Of a stretch of DNA of 64,000 bases, positions 1 through 5,920 are shown one piece after another. A program made the position numbers and the translations under genes. The DNA comes from Candidatus Berkelbacteria bacterium RIFCSPLOWO2_01_FULL_50_28. Its GTDB lineage: Bacteria; Patescibacteriota; UBA1384; 2-12-FULL-50-11. Within the stretch, counting starts at the first letter, position 1. Each line of letters starts with the position of its first letter. The notes under the pieces are model-generated. The model was not told the origin of the DNA, searched no databases, and worked only from the letters and a program-made list of their open reading frames with translations. The stretch is taken from the NCBI GenBank assembly GCA_001774395.1, contig MEZX01000002.1, positions 481,524 to 545,523 of the forward strand, given 5' to 3'.

Positions 1-2680
1 CAACGGTAATATAACCCTCGTGTCCAGCGATTTGGAATTTGTGGGTAATCGCGTGGCGTTCGTCGGGCAAACGTCGTCGGCGAGGCATATAAACGACTTT
101 CGTTTCACTCTTGGTCTCTGGTTCGTCGGGTACCTCATCAGTTTCACGTTTTTTTGTATTTAACGGCTGGCTCAACTTCGAACCGTCCCGATATAGGGCG
201 AGTGCTTTGACGCCCTGATGCCAAGACTGGATATAAACTTCCGTAACTTCTTCAACGGTGGCTTCGTGAGGCATATTGATGGTTTTGGAAATTGCACCGG
301 AGATAAACGGCTGGACGGCCGCCATCATCCGAACGTGAGCCATGGGGGCGATGAAGCGAGTTCCACGGGCGCCGCATTTATTGGCGCAGTCGAAAACTTT
401 TAGGTGCTCGTCTTTAAGAGATGGAGCGCCTTCAAGTGTCTGGGCGCCGCAAATAATCCCGTTGCTCTGGTTTATATCGGTTTCGCTGTAGCCAGCTTTC
501 TTTAGCCATGAGAACCCGGGTTCCGTTGATTCTTCCTCGGATATCCCCAGCCGCTCGTAGGCAACGTTACCCAAAGTGTGACGGTTGAATGCGTGATTGA
601 TGTCGAAACTGCTGCCGAGGATTTTGGCTACCTCGTCGATCTCACTTTCGGTAAGACCCTTTTCCGACAGGCTGGTGCGATTGATTGGCGTAGATCCCTC
701 TAGCGACCCCGTGCCTAAAACGTAAGTTAGAATACCTTGGCGTTGCGATTCATCATATCCAAGGTTAGCTAAGGCCTGTGAGACAGCGCTGTTAACGATC
801 TTTACCGAACCGCCGCCGGCGAGTTTTTTGAATTTCACTACGGCAAAATCTGGTTCGACACCGGTGGTGTCGCAGTCCATCAAAAGCCCAATCGTTCCAG
901 TTGGAGCGATAACGGTTGCTTGAGCGTTGCGATAACCAAATTGCTCGCCTAGGGCGACGGCTTCGTCCCAATCTTGTTTGGCGGCGGCGAGCAGATCTGT
1001 TGGACAGTGTCGCTCGTTCAGGGCGTACGCGGCGGACCGGTGCATTTGCATCACGTTTAACATTGGGGCCCGATTTTTAACAAATCCGGCGAACGGCCCC
1101 TTGACCGCCGAAATCTCGGCTGAAGTTTTGTAAGCGTGCCCGGTCATAATGGCCGAGAGCGCCCCGCCAATTGCCGTACCTTCGGGCGAGTCGTACGCAA
1201 CGCCTTTGAGCATTAAGAGCGTGCCAAGGTTAGCAAAACCCAATCCTAGCGGTCGATAGTCGTGGGAGTTCTTGGCGAGAATTTCCGTAGGATAGCTGGA
1301 AAGATCGACCGCAATCTCTTGCGCAATAAACATAATCTTACAAGCGTGGCGATAGGCGGCGATATCGATGTTCCCTTTGTCGTCAGCAAACTTTACAAGG
1401 TTAATCGAGGCAAGGTTACAGGCTGAATCGTCAAGAAACATATACTCCGAACACGGGTTTGAGGCGTTTATTCGACCGGTATTTGGGCAAGTGTGCCACT
1501 TATTGATAATTGTATCGAACTGCACACCTGGGTCGGCGCACTGCCAGGCGGCCTTGGCGATTTTGTCCATTAAGTATTTGGCTTTGTAGGTTTTGTACGG
1601 CTCGTTAGACGTAACCGCTCGCGTAGTCCACTCCCCGTCACTTTCGTAAGAGCGCATGAACTCGTCGTTTAAGCGCACCGAGTTGTTAGAGTTTTGGCCG
1701 GAAACAGTGTGATAAGCTTCACCGTTAAAATCGGATGAATATCCGGCATCGATCAGCGTTTGGACCTTGCGCTCCTCTTGCACCTTCCAATCGATAAATT
1801 CTTCAATCTCTGGATGAGTGATATCGACGACGACCATCTTTGCGGCTCGCCGGGTTGTCCCGCCAGATTTAACGGCATCCGCCGCTCGGTCGAATACCCG
1901 AAGAAAGCTCATCATTCCACTGGACGTTCCGCCGCCGCTCAATCGCTCAAAACGGCTGCGAAGACGGGAAAAGTTGGCACCCGAGCCGGAGCCAAACTTA
2001 AAGATGCGCGACTCGGTTTTTATCAGCTCAAAAATATCACCAAGGCTATCCCCTACTGAGAGGATGAAGCAGGCCGAGCATTGCGGATTTCGATAACCGT
2101 TTTTTGTTTCCAAAACCTTCCCCTCCTTGAAGTCCCAATAGAAACTACCGTTTGTGCCCTCGATTTTGTATTGATGATAAAGTCCGCAGTTGAACCAAAC
2201 TGGTGAGTTGAAAGCCGCTTTTTGGTTGATGAGGAGGAATTTTAACTCGTCTTCAAATGTAATTCGATCCTCGGGGGTGGCAAAGTAACCGAACTTCTCA
2301 CCGAAGTCGGCCATGGTGTGGCTGATACGGTGAACCGCTTGCTTCGCGCTGGTTTCTCGTCCTTCAGGTGTTGGGACGCCGGCTTTGCGCAAATATTTGT
2401 ATGCCAAAATGTCGGTTGCTAGTTGGCTCCAAGACGAAGGAACCTCGACATTGCTGATCTGAGCGATGATATTGCCGGATTCGTCGGCAATCGTCGTGGT
2501 GCGACGGTCGTACTGCAGTTGGCTAAATGGATCTTGACCCGGAGTGGTGAATCTTCTAGTTAGTTTTAGGCCTGTTTTGTGGTTTGGTTTGGCGCTGTTG
2601 GTGAGATCGACGGAAATCTCCACTGGTTTTAGAGCAATTTCCGCTGACTTGTCCTGCCCGCTCTTGTTGTTTTTTGCCAT
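1..2680 (-). CDS. nrdJ: Class II (adenosylcobalamin-dependent) ribonucleotide reductase NrdJ. The start codon lies at 2680 and the C-terminus runs off the window.
   Basis: Manual minus-strand translation from ATG at 2680 gives MAKNNKSGQDK... with the class II motifs NPCSEYMFLDDSACNLASINL, AQATVIAPTGTIGLLMDCDTTGVEPDF and ALYRDGSKLSQPL. The ORF is open to position 1, so it is absent from the ORF track. Confidence 0.85.
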   Translation of the reverse strand, partial: MAKNNKSGQDKSAEIALKPVEISVDLTNSAKPNHKTGLKLTRRFTTPGQDPFSQLQYDRRTTTIADESGNIIAQISNVEVPSSWSQLATDILAYKYLRKAGVPTPEGRETSAKQAVHRISHTMADFGEKFGYFATPEDRITFEDELKFLLINQKAAFNSPVWFNCGLYHQYKIEGTNGSFYWDFKEGKVLETKNGYRNPQCSACFILSVGDSLGDIFELIKTESRIFKFGSGSGANFSRLRSRFERLSGGGTSSGMMSFLRVFDRAADAVKSGGTTRRAAKMVVVDITHPEIEEFIDWKVQEERKVQTLIDAGYSSDFNGEAYHTVSGQNSNNSVRLNDEFMRSYESDGEWTTRAVTSNEPYKTYKAKYLMDKIAKAAWQCADPGVQFDTIINKWHTCPNTGRINASNPCSEYMFLDDSACNLASINLVKFADDKGNIDIAAYRHACKIMFIAQEIAVDLSSYPTEILAKNSHDYRPLGLGFANLGTLLMLKGVAYDSPEGTAIGGALSAIMTGHAYKTSAEISAVKGPFAGFVKNRAPMLNVMQMHRSAAYALNERHCPTDLLAAAKQDWDEAVALGEQFGYRNAQATVIAPTGTIGLLMDCDTTGVEPDFAVVKFKKLAGGGSVKIVNSAVSQALANLGYDESQRQGILTYVLGTGSLEGSTPINRTSLSEKGLTESEIDEVAKILGSSFDINHAFNRHTLGNVAYERLGISEEESTEPGFSWLKKAGYSETDINQSNGIICGAQTLEGAPSLKDEHLKVFDCANKCGARGTRFIAPMAHVRMMAAVQPFISGAISKTINMPHEATVEEVTEVYIQSWHQGVKALALYRDGSKLSQPLNTKKRETDEVPDEPETKSETKVVYMPRRRRLPDERHAITHKFQIAGHEGYITV

Positions 2681-2956
2681 TCCACCCTCCCGCTAAAGTT
2701 AACCAAACGCTTATCCACAATTGCCAATGCAGCTAACAATGTCAAGGGCTGATTTTACGGGAAAGATACGGGAAATGTTCGGGGAGCAAGGCTTCCCTGA
2801 AGCCACACAAACTTTGTGGGGGTGAGGGGCTTAATTCCGAAGCAGCCCCTACACCCCCACGCCCCCTACCCTGCACGGTTCCCGCGGGGCATGGAGAAAA
2901 ATTGCCGCGCTTCTGGAAGGATCACAGAGCGACTTGGCAATTTTTCGTGTATTGGT

Positions 2957-2993
2957 ATAAAAAACTCCCGCCGTGCCGGGTGGCAGGGCGGGA
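2957..2993 (-). terminator. Rho-independent terminator after paralog gene 1.
   Basis: The minus-strand RNA is CCCGCCCUGCCACCCGGCACGGCGGG followed by a U-run (AGUUUUUUAU). It is identical in sequence to the hairpin at 3711-3736. Confidence 0.7.
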
Positions 2994-3027
2994 GTGACTT
3001 CAACGGGGCTGTCGTTTGTCAGTCTGG

Positions 3028-3546
3028 TCAGCGTACCGAGAAGTGGAGCTTGGTTCGACCCACTTTCCAGAGATAGACCCAAGAGATCAGGCCTGTTCTG
3101 CCAGGTCTGTCTTTCAAGAGCTCGGAACTTCCCCTGAGATCGATACTGAGCATCCGGTACGGACCGTGCACGAACCTGAACAGTGCCCCCTCGAGACAGA
3201 GGGGCTCTATGTGCTCCGCAGATGCAGCGCCGATGGTCAGAACCTGGTCTGATGGAATCTCTGGAACCGGGGCCGACGGAGCGCCTGACTGGGCCCAGCA
3301 GTATGGATAGTCGCAATGTTCGGGATGCGGCGGCCACCATAGTGTAAAGCCCACACCACTTTCACTTTGGAACGTTATGGTTCTGCTTCTCCCAAACGTA
3401 AGGCTGTCCCCGTCGTATGGCTCCGAGGCATTGTAGTAAAGGAACTTCTCGATCGCGCTTCTCCACTCGTTACCACCGAAATCAAGATATATCGGGTGCT
3501 GGAAATGGATACGCGTAATCAGGGTTTGATTTGAAAGGTTCATCAT
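3028..3546 (-). CDS. Hypothetical protein. It is paralogous to 3757..4221 and shares the C-terminal FVHGP...YLWK motif.
   Basis: The ORF-track ORF is 3028..3627. The more likely start is ATGATG at 3541-3546, which has GGGAGA five nucleotides upstream. A sigma70-like promoter TTGACC-N17-TGATAAAAT on the minus strand overlaps the annotated upstream ATG. Confidence 0.6.
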   Translation of the reverse strand: MMNLSNQTLITRIHFQHPIYLDFGGNEWRSAIEKFLYYNASEPYDGDSLTFGRSRTITFQSESGVGFTLWWPPHPEHCDYPYCWAQSGAPSAPVPEIPSDQVLTIGAASAEHIEPLCLEGALFRFVHGPYRMLSIDLRGSSELLKDRPGRTGLISWVYLWKVGRTKLHFSVR

Positions 3547-3611
3547 GGTCTCCCATGGCTCGCACACGCACAGTGTCCTTGAACAACTCAAGGAGAGGTC
3601 ATGCAGCGAAT

Positions 3612-3660
3612 GCTGGAATTTTATCACCCGTGGATAAGAAGGTCAAGAAGTTTGAGCCGG
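3612..3660 (-). promoter_or_regulatory. Sigma70-type promoter for paralog gene 1, overlapped by a 14 bp imperfect inverted repeat that could be an operator.
   Basis: -35 TTGACC at 3641-3646 (revcomp), a 17 bp spacer, and an extended -10 TGATAAAAT at ~3618-3626 (revcomp). The repeat GGTCAAGAAGTTTGA-N17-TCAAACTCTTGACC (3641-3687) overlaps the -35. Confidence 0.5.
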
Positions 3661-3698
3661 AAGTGTCACTATTCAAACTCTTGACCTTCTTTATTGAT

Positions 3699-3737
3699 AT
3701 AAAAAAATATCCCGCCGTGCCGGGTGGCAGGGCGGGG
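3699..3737 (-). terminator. Rho-independent terminator after paralog gene 2.
   Basis: The same 26 nt GC hairpin cccgccgtgccgggtggcagggcggg is preceded on the plus strand by ataaaaaaatat, which gives a U-run after the hairpin on the minus strand. Confidence 0.7.
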
Positions 3738-3756
3738 TGGTGCTGACGGGGCGGGA

Positions 3757-4221
3757 TCAGCGATACGAGGCGGCGATATGCAATGCCCGATCTTTGGCCG
3801 ACTTCCAAAGGTATAGCACCTGAATGAAACTGCCATCGCACTGACTAGGTCTCAAGTCGGGGAAGTATATGACGAGCACTATTCTTGGGCCATGAACGAA
3901 GTCGAACAGTCTCGACTTAACCCCAGTATCACTGCAGCTAGGGTGTGAGACTAGCACTTCATGCGGCTCGATAGCAGGCCTCTCATCTCCGACGCTTCCG
4001 CGAGCGCAGACGGTTCCATTGCGATGATCCCACTCGATCCTCACCTGTGTACCCAAGGCCAGACTGAAGGTGAGGTTCTGACAGTCCCTTCTAGTCTCCC
4101 TGGCGGCCGTGAGCAAGAAGTCTGTGATCGCCTCTTTCCACAATCTACCGATTGCTTTGTTGTGGCCCCCAAATGAGGCGATGTACTCGACCTCGGTGCC
4201 ATTTATGTCTTGGTACGGCAT
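3757..4221 (-). CDS. Hypothetical protein, paralog of 3028..3546.
   Basis: The ORF track gives 3757..4251. The start is probably MPYQD at 4221, with a GGAGGGA RBS and an upstream TTGACC-N17-TAGACT promoter on the minus strand (4255-4300). It shares FGG, LTF and FVHGP...VLYLWK blocks with gene 1. Confidence 0.6.
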   Translation of the reverse strand: MPYQDINGTEVEYIASFGGHNKAIGRLWKEAITDFLLTAARETRRDCQNLTFSLALGTQVRIEWDHRNGTVCARGSVGDERPAIEPHEVLVSHPSCSDTGVKSRLFDFVHGPRIVLVIYFPDLRPSQCDGSFIQVLYLWKSAKDRALHIAASYR

Positions 4222-4678
4222 GGATCCCTCCAATGCATCGCACATTTTCAACGTCGCTAAACTATTCTTGCGAGAGAAATGCTACGAGTTGAAAGTAGTC
4301 TATCCTTGATAAACTAAAAGGTCAATGATTTAGCTCCCTTTCTCTAACGAGATGTGGAGAAAAAGCTTCGGGGGTTCGTCCATAAGCTGGGCTCCAGCGT
4401 CCCGGCTAAGCCACTCGCTTTTTCGAGCTATTGATACTGAAAACCGGCGACTGCCACAGCGATTTCGTCAGAAATCGGAGCATAGCGAGATCCTTCCGGT
4501 GGCGAGGAGCCGGCTTTCTCCACCCGCCTGGGGCGAGCGTGACAGGGTAAGGGGTGTGGGGACCTAGGGACGGTCTTCGCAATTCAAGTCCCTGGTCCCC
4601 ACAAAAAAGCTGCAGGGGCCTGGCCCCTACAATAATACTTCCGACCGAGTCGACAAAAATCATTTCTAGTGAATTAGG

Positions 4679-5920
4679 CTATCGTAGTTTGCGTCTGATG
4701 AACGCGGGGACGTCGAGTTGCTCGTCTTCTGGCTCTTCAGCCTTCTTCTCAAAAGTCGAGCGTGAGCGGTCCGGTTCGTGTCTCATCGGTGGCTCGGCAC
4801 TTTCTGGCTCAACGGTAAACGGCGAAGATTGCGCGGTTGGCAACGAGCCAAAAAACGGGATCGACGACGATGGTGCTGGTGCGTTTTGCATGTTTGGACT
4901 GTGCATCGGTCGCGTTCCGAAGCCGAGCGGTTCTTCACCGAGTGCTCGCCGTTTGGCGGGGGCTTTTATCATCTCCGACTCAAACCCAGTGGCGATGACC
5001 GTCACTTTTACTTCGCCGGACATCGCTTCGTCAACCGTCACACCAAAGATGATGTTGGCCTCAGGGTGCGCCGCCTCGGTGATGGCTTTGGAAGCCTCTT
5101 CAACTTCGTACATAGTCATATCGGTGCCACCGGTGACGTTGTAGAGAATTCCAAGCGCGCCATCGATGGAGAGCTCGAGGAGCGGTGAGTCGATAGCTTG
5201 ACGAGCCGCCTCAATGGCCCGGTTTTCACCACCGGCTCGACCGATTCCCATCAGGGCTGAACCAGCATCTTTCATAATCGTTCGGACGTCAGCAAAGTCG
5301 ACGTTAATAATCGCCGGGTTGACAATGATATCGGAAATGCCTTGAACTCCCTGGCGGAGGATGTCGTCAACGATGCCAAAGGCGTCGGTAAACGAGGTTT
5401 TTTTGTCGATCACTTGCAGTAGGCGGTCGTTAGGAATGGTAATTAGGGTGTCTACTTTGTCGCGCAGATCTTCGATGCCAAGTTCGGCAACTTTCTTGCG
5501 ACGGAGGCCTTCAAAACTGAACGGTTTGGTAACCACACCAACCGTGAGCGCACCGAGTTCACGGGCGATCTGAGCTACCAACGGGGCGGCGCCTGTTCCG
5601 GTGCCGCCACCAGCGCCGCAGGTAACAAAAACCATATCGGCGCCCTTGAGCACCTCGTAAATTTCATCTTTATTTTCTTCGGCCGATTTGCGCCCAACTT
5701 CTGTGTCTGCTCCCGAACCTAAGCCCTTAGTTGTTTCTTTGCCGATCTGGACTTTTACCGGTGCCGGGTTGTTGGAAAGCGCCTGGGCATCAGTATTAAT
5801 GGCGATAAACTCTACCCCTCGAACGCGGGCAGCGATCATGCGTGCCAGAGCGTTACCACCGGAGCCGCCTATGCCACACACTTTAATTGATGCGAAAGTC
5901 TCGAGGGCTTCTTTGTTCAT
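4679..5920 (-). CDS. ftsZ: Cell division GTPase FtsZ.
   Basis: [10 protein letters not shown] tubulin signature, N-terminal [11 protein letters not shown] motif, and a Pro/Ser-rich C-terminal tail. Confidence 0.95.

Follow-up and report, generated by a model that had tools for sequence, protein, structure and literature searches.

The stretch of DNA analysed here, a 64 kb piece of a Candidatus Berkelbacteria genome (hereafter the window, whose positions serve as coordinates throughout), carries a pair of small genes, gene 1 and gene 2, between ftsZ and nrdJ, with ftsA also among the neighbouring genes. The pair lies on the minus strand together with its promoters, leaders and terminators, and transcription runs from high to low coordinates, so that ftsZ is followed by gene 2, gene 1 and finally nrdJ. 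The neighbours are recognizable by their domains as FtsZ and as a class II ribonucleotide reductase (PF08471 + PF02867 + PF12637), and NCBI annotates both products of the pair as “hypothetical protein” of Candidatus Berkelbacteria. Our analysis suggests that the pair represents a self-contained gene cassette present in two tandem copies, each transcribed on its own. This cassette would consist of a sigma-70-type promoter, a structured leader of ~70 nucleotides (nt), an open reading frame (ORF) for a soluble alpha/beta protein of ~155-170 amino acids (aa), and an intrinsic terminator. We give this explanation as a whole a probability of about 0.6.

Both ORFs open with an ATG that has a Shine–Dalgarno (SD) sequence at the correct spacing on its 5' side, and their proteins align with each other over 150 aa at 27% identity (BLASTP, E 1e-6), which makes them paralogs. 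An initial annotation, made from the sequence letters, had described two paralogous genes of no assigned function and without a nameable domain, sharing the blocks FGG, LTF, FVHGP and (V/L)YLWK. The blocks are seen in both proteins, and the description agrees with the BLASTP result and with domain libraries that came back empty. With no annotated functions, and with overlapping alternative ORFs on both strands, the two could also be read as chance ORFs in a GC-rich spacer, the hairpins being repeat elements. We rejected this highly improbable reading, and it is already effectively refuted: the ORFs have homologs in ~20 clusters with conserved motifs, ratios of nonsynonymous to synonymous divergence (dN/dS) of 0.14-0.41, a confident structure prediction, and the correctly spaced SD sequence before both ATGs. 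As a separate observation, the NCBI record holds a 63-aa ORF on the opposite strand (window ~3555-3746, plus strand; L103 4476-4667), which spans the promoter and leader of gene 1 and the terminator of gene 2 and is most likely a spurious gene call.

Each gene appears to form a transcription unit of its own. The 210-nt spacer between gene 2 and gene 1 contains a terminator hairpin with its U-run, and then a second promoter with its own leader. The proposal of the initial annotation that each gene has its own sigma70-like promoter is supported at the level of prediction, as the hexamers, the 17-nt spacing and the position are kept in relatives; equivalent hexamers stand at matching positions in L002 and L006 for the gene 1 site, and in L001 and L002 for the gene 2 site. 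The four promoter-like sites in the region, against 1.8 +/- 1.5 expected, are not significant as a count alone. At the other end of each unit, a GC-rich stem-loop begins 32 nt (gene 1) or 20 nt (gene 2) past the stop codon and is followed by a U-tract of 6 or 7, respectively. Folded on the minus strand and compared with shuffled controls, the hairpins reach -26.0 kcal/mol (z -6.2) for gene 1 and -20.7 kcal/mol (z -4.1) for gene 2, and by their sequence both have the features of Rho-independent terminators. The two identical 26-nt terminators reported earlier are indeed there, each with a stable fold and a U-run: the hairpin core, CCCGCCGTGCCGGGTGGCAGGGCGGG, is exact in both copies and found nowhere else in the 64 kb, where the chance expectation is zero. 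The coordinates of these and the other features are collected in Table 1.

Table 1. Features of the locus in transcription order, followed by the leaders of related contigs and by distant members of the protein family.
Feature	Position	Strand	Remarks
ftsZ	4679-5920	-	first in transcription order, 5' of the gene 2 unit
ftsZ terminator	4610-4632	-	insulates the cassettes from ftsZ
Right arm	4489-4605	-	directly after the ftsZ terminator; hairpin 4602-4556
Canonical G-quadruplex motif, right arm	4545-4569	+	GGGTAAGGGGTGTGGGGACCTAGGG
Gene 2 promoter-like site	4325..4297	-	TTGACC-17-TAGACT; 9/12
Gene 2 leader	4216-4296	-	covariance model R1, 96.1 bits; homologous to the gene 1 leader
Gene 2	3757-4221	-	154 aa from MPYQD; ORF open to 4251; NCBI A3F39_00595
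Gene 2 intrinsic terminator	3701-3736	-	stem-loop 3736-3711 (26-nt core 3711-3736), then U7
Inverted repeat over gene 1 -35	3636-3692	both	mirror TTGACC on + strand
Gene 1 promoter-like site	3646..3618	-	TTGACC-17-(TG)ATAAAAT, i.e. TTGACC-17-TAAAAT with upstream TG; 10/12
Gene 1 leader	3538-3618	-	covariance model R1, 73.5 bits
Gene 1	3028-3546	-	172 aa from MMNLSN; ORF open to 3627; NCBI OGD61021.1 and others
Gene 1 intrinsic terminator	2959-2995	-	stem-loop 2995-2964, 26-nt core 2967-2992, then U-run
Left arm	2813-2925	+	between the gene 1 terminator and the nrdJ promoter; outer 16-bp GC hairpin 2816-2860
Canonical G-quadruplex motif, left arm	2846-2871	-	GGGTAGGGGGCGTGGGGGTGTAGGGG
nrdJ	start ~2681	-	preceded by its promoter region; class II ribonucleotide reductase, 1067 aa; last in order
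Leader in L001	776-856
Leaders in L002	479-559 and 1142-1221
Leader in L006	1330-1412
Distant members in L009, L112, L113			between fusA and tuf
Distant member in L007			after pnp
Distant member in L115			after hisS
Distant member in L005			after clpB, an HD-domain gene and a NUDIX gene

Among the related contigs, conservation across the locus is highest between the -10 element and the start codon, and the leaders of gene 1 and gene 2 can be aligned with each other though their proteins are only ~30% identical. In the consensus fold of this leader a long stem surrounds a variable hairpin, and the AUG and part of GGAG are base-paired in a small hairpin that comes next; in the gene 1 leader the start codon lies inside the small hairpin and SD residues lie in its loop. 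The consensus comprises 25 pairs, with 88% of cells paired and double (compensatory) changes in 6 of the 25, and its covariation score of 0.308 compares with 0.199 for shuffled alignments (0/500 reach the observed value) and with <= 0.19 for slid controls. A covariance model of this consensus matches six leaders of the clade only, and nothing else in the window. Rfam gave no more than sub-threshold chance matches on 2000-5200 and on L001 and L002 (ncr1175 at 28.6 bits, with a gathering score of 60), and metagenome contigs scanned with the leader pattern gave no match.

Leaders that occlude the SD sequence and the AUG include the fourU and ROSE RNA thermometers and the autoregulatory leaders of ribosomal proteins. 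The leader described here resembles them in being short and in having, behind a longer conserved stem-loop, a 3' hairpin in which the start codon is paired along with part of the SD sequence; it differs from them in having no Rfam match and no fourU or ROSE signature, and in being confined to six leaders of one clade. We regard it as a candidate new cis-regulatory RNA which, with the AUG and part of the SD sequence held in the small hairpin behind the conserved long stem, would control translation. It would also be a better candidate for regulation than the inverted repeat across the -35 hexamer of gene 1, which had been taken for an operator. That repeat is real, with arms that are perfect over 13 nt (3636-3648 / 3679-3691) and extendable to ~19 bp at -25.9 kcal/mol. 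The operator role is unsupported: L002, the closest relative, lacks the repeat, and L006 has no more than a short version of it. Its mirror arm yields a promoter-like TTGACC-16-AAAAAT on the plus strand (3681-3708), pointing antisense into gene 2, which may be a by-product of the repeat and the terminator A-run.

Three related contigs allow the arrangement to be compared across lineages. In L002, ftsZ is followed by a gene 2-like gene with the same hairpin and then by the start of a gene 1-like gene, the leader of the latter being nearly identical to that of gene 1 in the window. L001 has ftsZ and a gene 2-like gene with a variant form of the hairpin, and then different DNA, in the next 190 nt of which there is no gene 1-type leader. 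L006 has ftsZ, a gene 1-like gene with a different terminator, and then nrdJ, with no gene 2. The ftsZ-proximal gap therefore holds one or two family members depending on the lineage. The locus is evolutionarily dynamic, in that copy number and paralog type differ among the three, but at least one family member sits directly downstream of ftsZ in each.

The homology of promoter position, leader and ORF between the copies shows an ancient duplication that took in the whole cassette, the ORFs having then diverged to ~30% identity. The initial annotation had called the genes recently duplicated. The proteins are 27-34% identical and synonymous divergence (dS) between the genes is saturated, so the duplication must be old. 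Only the terminator modules are near-identical, at ~95% over ~44 nt (2950-2993 versus 3692-3737), and it is thus this module, not the genes, that has been recently homogenised. The two hairpins have the GC stem-loop and U-tract in common with Rho-independent terminators, from which they differ in that one shared 26-nt sequence serves two genes otherwise ~30% identical, a combination that points to conversion rather than independent evolution. The gene 2 hairpin recurs after the gene 2 ortholog of L002. The gene 1-like gene of L006 has another hairpin, and the likeness of the window's terminators is therefore best explained by a conversion from gene 2 to gene 1, which would have been a recent event spanning the 44-nt module.

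The genes evolve far faster than their neighbour. In the comparison of the window with L002, aa identity is 92.8% for the FtsZ tail, with a nonsynonymous divergence (dN) of 0.037, and 55.8% for gene 2, with a dN of 0.35 and dN/dS of 0.41. Gene 1 and its L006 ortholog are 41.6% identical, with dN/dS of 0.28. Overall, nonsynonymous divergence is ~10x that of the ftsZ tail, and the ratios indicate that the ORFs are under purifying but relaxed selection. The divergence is also mosaic. Against L001, codons 1-45 of gene 2 have a dS of 0.15, compared with >= 1.6 for the remainder of the gene and 2.2 for ftsZ, and the same codons are not conserved at silent sites against L002; a low-dS segment that appears against L001 only is more readily explained by recombination between lineages than by constraint. 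Variability peaks in the middle third of the protein, where identity is 34-40%.

Composition offers no real support for a foreign origin. The segment with the pair had been described as GC-richer than the flanking nrdJ and ftsZ, but its GC content of 0.529 is below that of ftsZ (0.547), the nrdJ part having 0.51 and the window 0.49, and corresponds to the 90th percentile of equal-size windows. GC at third codon positions is 0.63 in both genes, against 0.535 +/- 0.055 for 49 ORFs of the window (+1.7 standard deviations, third to fourth highest). The genes thus lie on the GC-rich side without being outliers. Horizontal acquisition, as suggested earlier, finds no support in so mild a shift or in the three relatives that hold family members directly downstream of ftsZ. 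No integrase or transposase was found between ftsA and nrdJ, the nearest tRNA is at 36.4 kb, and the repeats that flank the pair are inverted, not direct. The family was not found in IMG/VR, phage records or plasmid records, using both protein alignments and tblastn of a main-subfamily member, nor was there any match in viral contigs scanned with the exact terminator hairpin or in metagenome contigs scanned with the family alignment. A scan of genome contigs with a degenerate and overly loose hairpin pattern returned 92 unrelated high-GC genomes and no Berkelbacteria.

These results bear on the overall picture drawn by the initial annotation, that of a recently duplicated, horizontally acquired and operator-regulated module of the toxin/antitoxin, toxin/immunity or stress type. 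Two small adjacent genes of unassigned function with somewhat high third-position GC, an inverted repeat across one -35 hexamer, fast evolution and varying copy number are all features that such a module could show, and recombining tandem arrays of divergent paralogs are known for immunity genes (PMC9484751; PMC3482391). We nonetheless find the module unlikely. The partners are paralogous and not two different folds, they are separated by a spacer with a terminator and a second promoter, and they are not inherited together, as relatives have either gene without the other and distant members are always single genes. PADLOC, Pfam and NCBIfam gave no hidden Markov model (HMM) match to toxin–antitoxin (TA), defence or immunity families for the pair, Pfam gave no match to known immunity families among the 21 family members, and no toxin or secretion gene is adjacent. 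The age of the duplication, a GC content no higher than that of ftsZ, and the absence of the inverted repeat from L002 count against it as well. The pair shares with type II TA operons the two small adjacent genes and an inverted repeat near a promoter, but differs in having paralogous partners, two transcription units, no co-inheritance and no TA domains. A type II TA pair was rejected, having failed the three defining tests of co-transcription, unrelated partners and joint inheritance.

A ~115-nt element flanks the pair on both sides in inverted orientation, and its two copies, the arms of Table 1, are 72% identical over 117 aligned columns (blastn E 2.7e-12). Their 16-bp outer GC hairpin keeps its pairing through four double substitutions between the arms. 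Each arm also contains a canonical G-quadruplex (G4) motif, and these two are the only such motifs in the 64 kb, for which a Markov control gave a mean of 0.5. As each motif overlaps a G-rich arm of the hairpin, hairpin and G4 would be alternative structures. The element is absent at the locus from L001 and L002 (in the spacer between ftsZ and gene 2) and from L006; since these relatives have the genes, the arms arrived after the genes, and they would represent later insertions of a lineage-specific structured hairpin/G4 repeat. There are only two arm copies within the 64 kb. Inspection of the outer flanks gave no target-site duplication, no recombinase or transposase was seen inside or beside the segment, and the arm motif has no copies among IMG/VR viral contigs. 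The arms are similar to miniature inverted-repeat transposable elements, repetitive extragenic palindromes and terminal inverted repeat (TIR) elements in their length, their strong terminal hairpin and their two inverted intergenic copies. They differ from them in lacking a target-site duplication and a transposase, in numbering two within 64 kb, and in carrying one canonical G4 each. Going by these features, they are a candidate new repeat class.

Arms that are inverted, face inward and bracket exactly both cassettes also raise the question of whether the pair could be the cargo of a mobile or invertible cassette that ends in them, be it a non-autonomous TIR element or a flipped segment. The compensatory changes in their structure and their absence from relatives that have the genes would suit this idea, as would the repeated ending of population contigs inside the arm hairpins (L104, L106, L108 and L109; window 2826-2854 and 4512-4599). 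In the NCBI scaffold, too, an N-gap falls in the arm hairpin region (L103 3617-3629). An invertible or heterogeneous segment may lie behind the contig breaks, but trouble in sequencing or assembly at strong GC hairpins explains breaks and gap equally well and is probably their cause. Moreover, relatives without arms hold the genes at the same locus, and arms that are 72% identical with exact runs of <= 9-10 nt would be a poor substrate for site-specific or homologous inversion. All ten contigs recovered from the population have the same orientation as the window; the odd start of L105, considered as an alternative junction, was rejected as an error-ridden fold-back. Together with the missing target-site duplication, transposase, recombinase and viral copies, this makes a mobile or invertible cassette a doubtful explanation.

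Beyond the left arm, just upstream of the nrdJ -35 hexamer (TTGACA, 2745-2740), the minus-strand reading of 2754-2785 contains three CCCG(T/A)A repeats in phase, with a spacing of 11 nt. They are unchanged in L006 and by eye are unlike the NrdR box, and they constitute a candidate regulator-binding array, as judged by sequence, of the class II ribonucleotide reductase gene.

Both proteins are members of a small orphan family, and no others occur within the window (family HMM E 1.6e-23 for gene 1 and 1.1e-26 for gene 2). A word-indexed search of 5.8e9 proteins returned only the query itself for gene 1, and two orthologs at 62% and 53% identity for gene 2. Of nine matches in a HMMER profile search of 1.84e9 cluster representatives, one was spurious (P0008, rejected as a eukaryotic USP-like tandem-repeat protein of 3205 aa whose score is inflated by its repeats). 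A second profile search, again of 5.8e9 proteins, gave 21 clusters of 148-196 aa each, none of them named. At 90% identity the family amounts to ~20 clusters, found only in uncultured bacteria. Its larger subfamily has the motifs QVSG, RWREAILYYLFG, YRPKI, YYAYG, IRFVKND and LWKKxRRGEYG; the proteins of the window are divergent members, and hhalign joins the Berkelbacteria subfamily to the main subfamily with 96% probability (E 3.4e-9). Pfam, NCBIfam, PADLOC and PHROGs gave no match for either protein or for any of the 21 members, and PDB sequence profiles gave 0 matches.

Structure prediction depended on the depth of the alignment. With four sequences the AlphaFold model had a predicted local distance difference test score (pLDDT) of 49 and was unusable, and with 21 sequences a good model was obtained, in which the gene 2 protein is confidently predicted to be alpha/beta (pLDDT 87, predicted template modelling score 0.84), with strands and helices in the order b-b-a-b-b-b-b-a-b-b-b. 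A Foldseek search of this model against the PDB and against the viral models of BFVD returned nothing below E 0.04. Neither the profile searches nor Foldseek produced a match to a housekeeping family, which was part of the result that the initial annotation had named as speaking against it. The proteins are hydrophilic, inspection revealed no hydrophobic N-terminal stretch in either, and isoelectric points across the family range from 5.7 to 9.6. The positions conserved in both subfamilies carry mainly hydrophobic or aromatic residues (W28, L36, F108, V109, L138 and W139) and one lysine, which is the pattern of a scaffold and not of a catalytic site.

Distant members of the family are single genes without a common neighbour; apart from those in Table 1, further ones occur in other unrelated contexts, and two members lie on contigs of 0.9-1.2 Mb. 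In three that were scanned (L009, L005 and L007), promoters match the consensus at 12/12 (L009), 11/12 and 10/12 positions. Terminator-like hairpins directly adjoin the gene on both sides in L009, on the upstream side in L005 and on the downstream side in L007. Distant members, which sit among housekeeping genes, are thus insulated, monocistronic and strongly promoted, so that this design is a trait of the family and not peculiar to the ftsZ locus. In L009, the 12/12 promoter (4981-5009) overlaps the called start at 5001, which makes it probable that the N-terminal extensions of P0022 and P0025 (196 and 192 aa) stem from mis-called starts. The fusA–tuf gap spans 4919-5877 in L009, 2918-5201 in L112 and 2888-5171 in L113. 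In the latter two it houses, besides the family member, a HicB-like UPF0150 gene and one further small ORF, and it seems to be another insertion-tolerant spot.

The contexts of these distant members also bear on the idea of a lineage-specific housekeeping role, in which the proteins would assist their neighbours, for instance as an FtsZ-binding factor of the SepF or ZapA type or as a partner of the ribonucleotide reductase. Such a role would fit genes that lie directly downstream of ftsZ in four lineages and proteins of SepF-like size with an alpha/beta prediction. However, Pfam gave no match to SepF (DUF552) or to any division or ribonucleotide reductase family at E <= 10, the genes are set apart from ftsZ and nrdJ by terminators and a separate promoter, distant members sit beside genes as unrelated as fusA/tuf, pnp, clpB and hisS, and the proteins evolve far faster than FtsZ. 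We therefore hold this role to be very unlikely, more so than the toxin/immunity module or the mobile cassette, and SepF-, NrdI- or NrdR-type functions were rejected.

Returning to the duplicated cassette, what its protein does may be approached through the way it has evolved. It could be an accessory factor with a binding or protective role, which evolves in an immunity-like manner under diversifying pressure and is neither a toxin nor an enzyme. With low confidence, then, the pair would encode a stand-alone, translationally controlled and non-enzymatic accessory protein under such pressure. Several points weigh against this proposal. The binding or protective step would follow from evolutionary behaviour only. 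In the hypervariable middle third dN/dS is 0.37-0.55, which is below 1 and thus no sign of positive selection. For translational control, the leader alignment contains only five distinct and related sequences, making the leader a candidate motif and not a proven one; the helix with the SD sequence and the AUG has no double changes and is 80% paired, and the covariance model found no leader at distant family members. Finally, the result that the modelled fold has no neighbour holds for the PDB and BFVD only. A more far-reaching proposal, which we consider improbable, would make the locus a new type of exchangeable cassette site, in which conflict proteins of the immunity or defence type, with a fold absent from the PDB and BFVD, evolve fast, a hitherto undescribed leader RNA controls expression and travels with the gene, and the hairpin/G4 arms of this lineage mediate inversion, exchange or transcriptional insulation.

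A parallel in evolutionary behaviour can be drawn with the tandem strings of divergent immunity-gene paralogs in polymorphic toxin systems, such as esaG/tsaI (PMC9484751; for an overview, PMC3482391). Here as there, small soluble proteins are encoded by adjacent divergent paralogs whose copy number differs between close relatives, a mosaic divergence suggests recombination, and conserved flanks surround a hypervariable middle. The pair differs in that toxins, secretion systems and known Imm domains are missing from its surroundings, that promoter, leader and terminator are separate for each copy, and that most family members are single genes. The pair resembles these strings in behaviour, but it is a member of no such family. 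At a broader level, many protein families of unassigned function are restricted to the Candidate Phyla Radiation (CPR) (Meheust et al. 2019, PMC6744442). The family described here is likewise a small hypothetical-protein family confined to uncultured bacteria, but it is very small, patchy, fast-evolving and variable in copy number at one locus.

The mechanism outlined above is proposed only, and the locus is in our view valuable as a starting point for structural and functional genomics on hypothetical proteins of the CPR; in itself it is no discovery. It is a compact test case, in which a protein family with a confidently predicted fold and no known relatives is combined with an insulated unit that was duplicated whole, and with clear signs of fast divergence and of exchange between lineages. 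CPR bacteria are episymbionts with tiny genomes, and each accessory gene that such a genome retains is therefore informative on episymbiont life.

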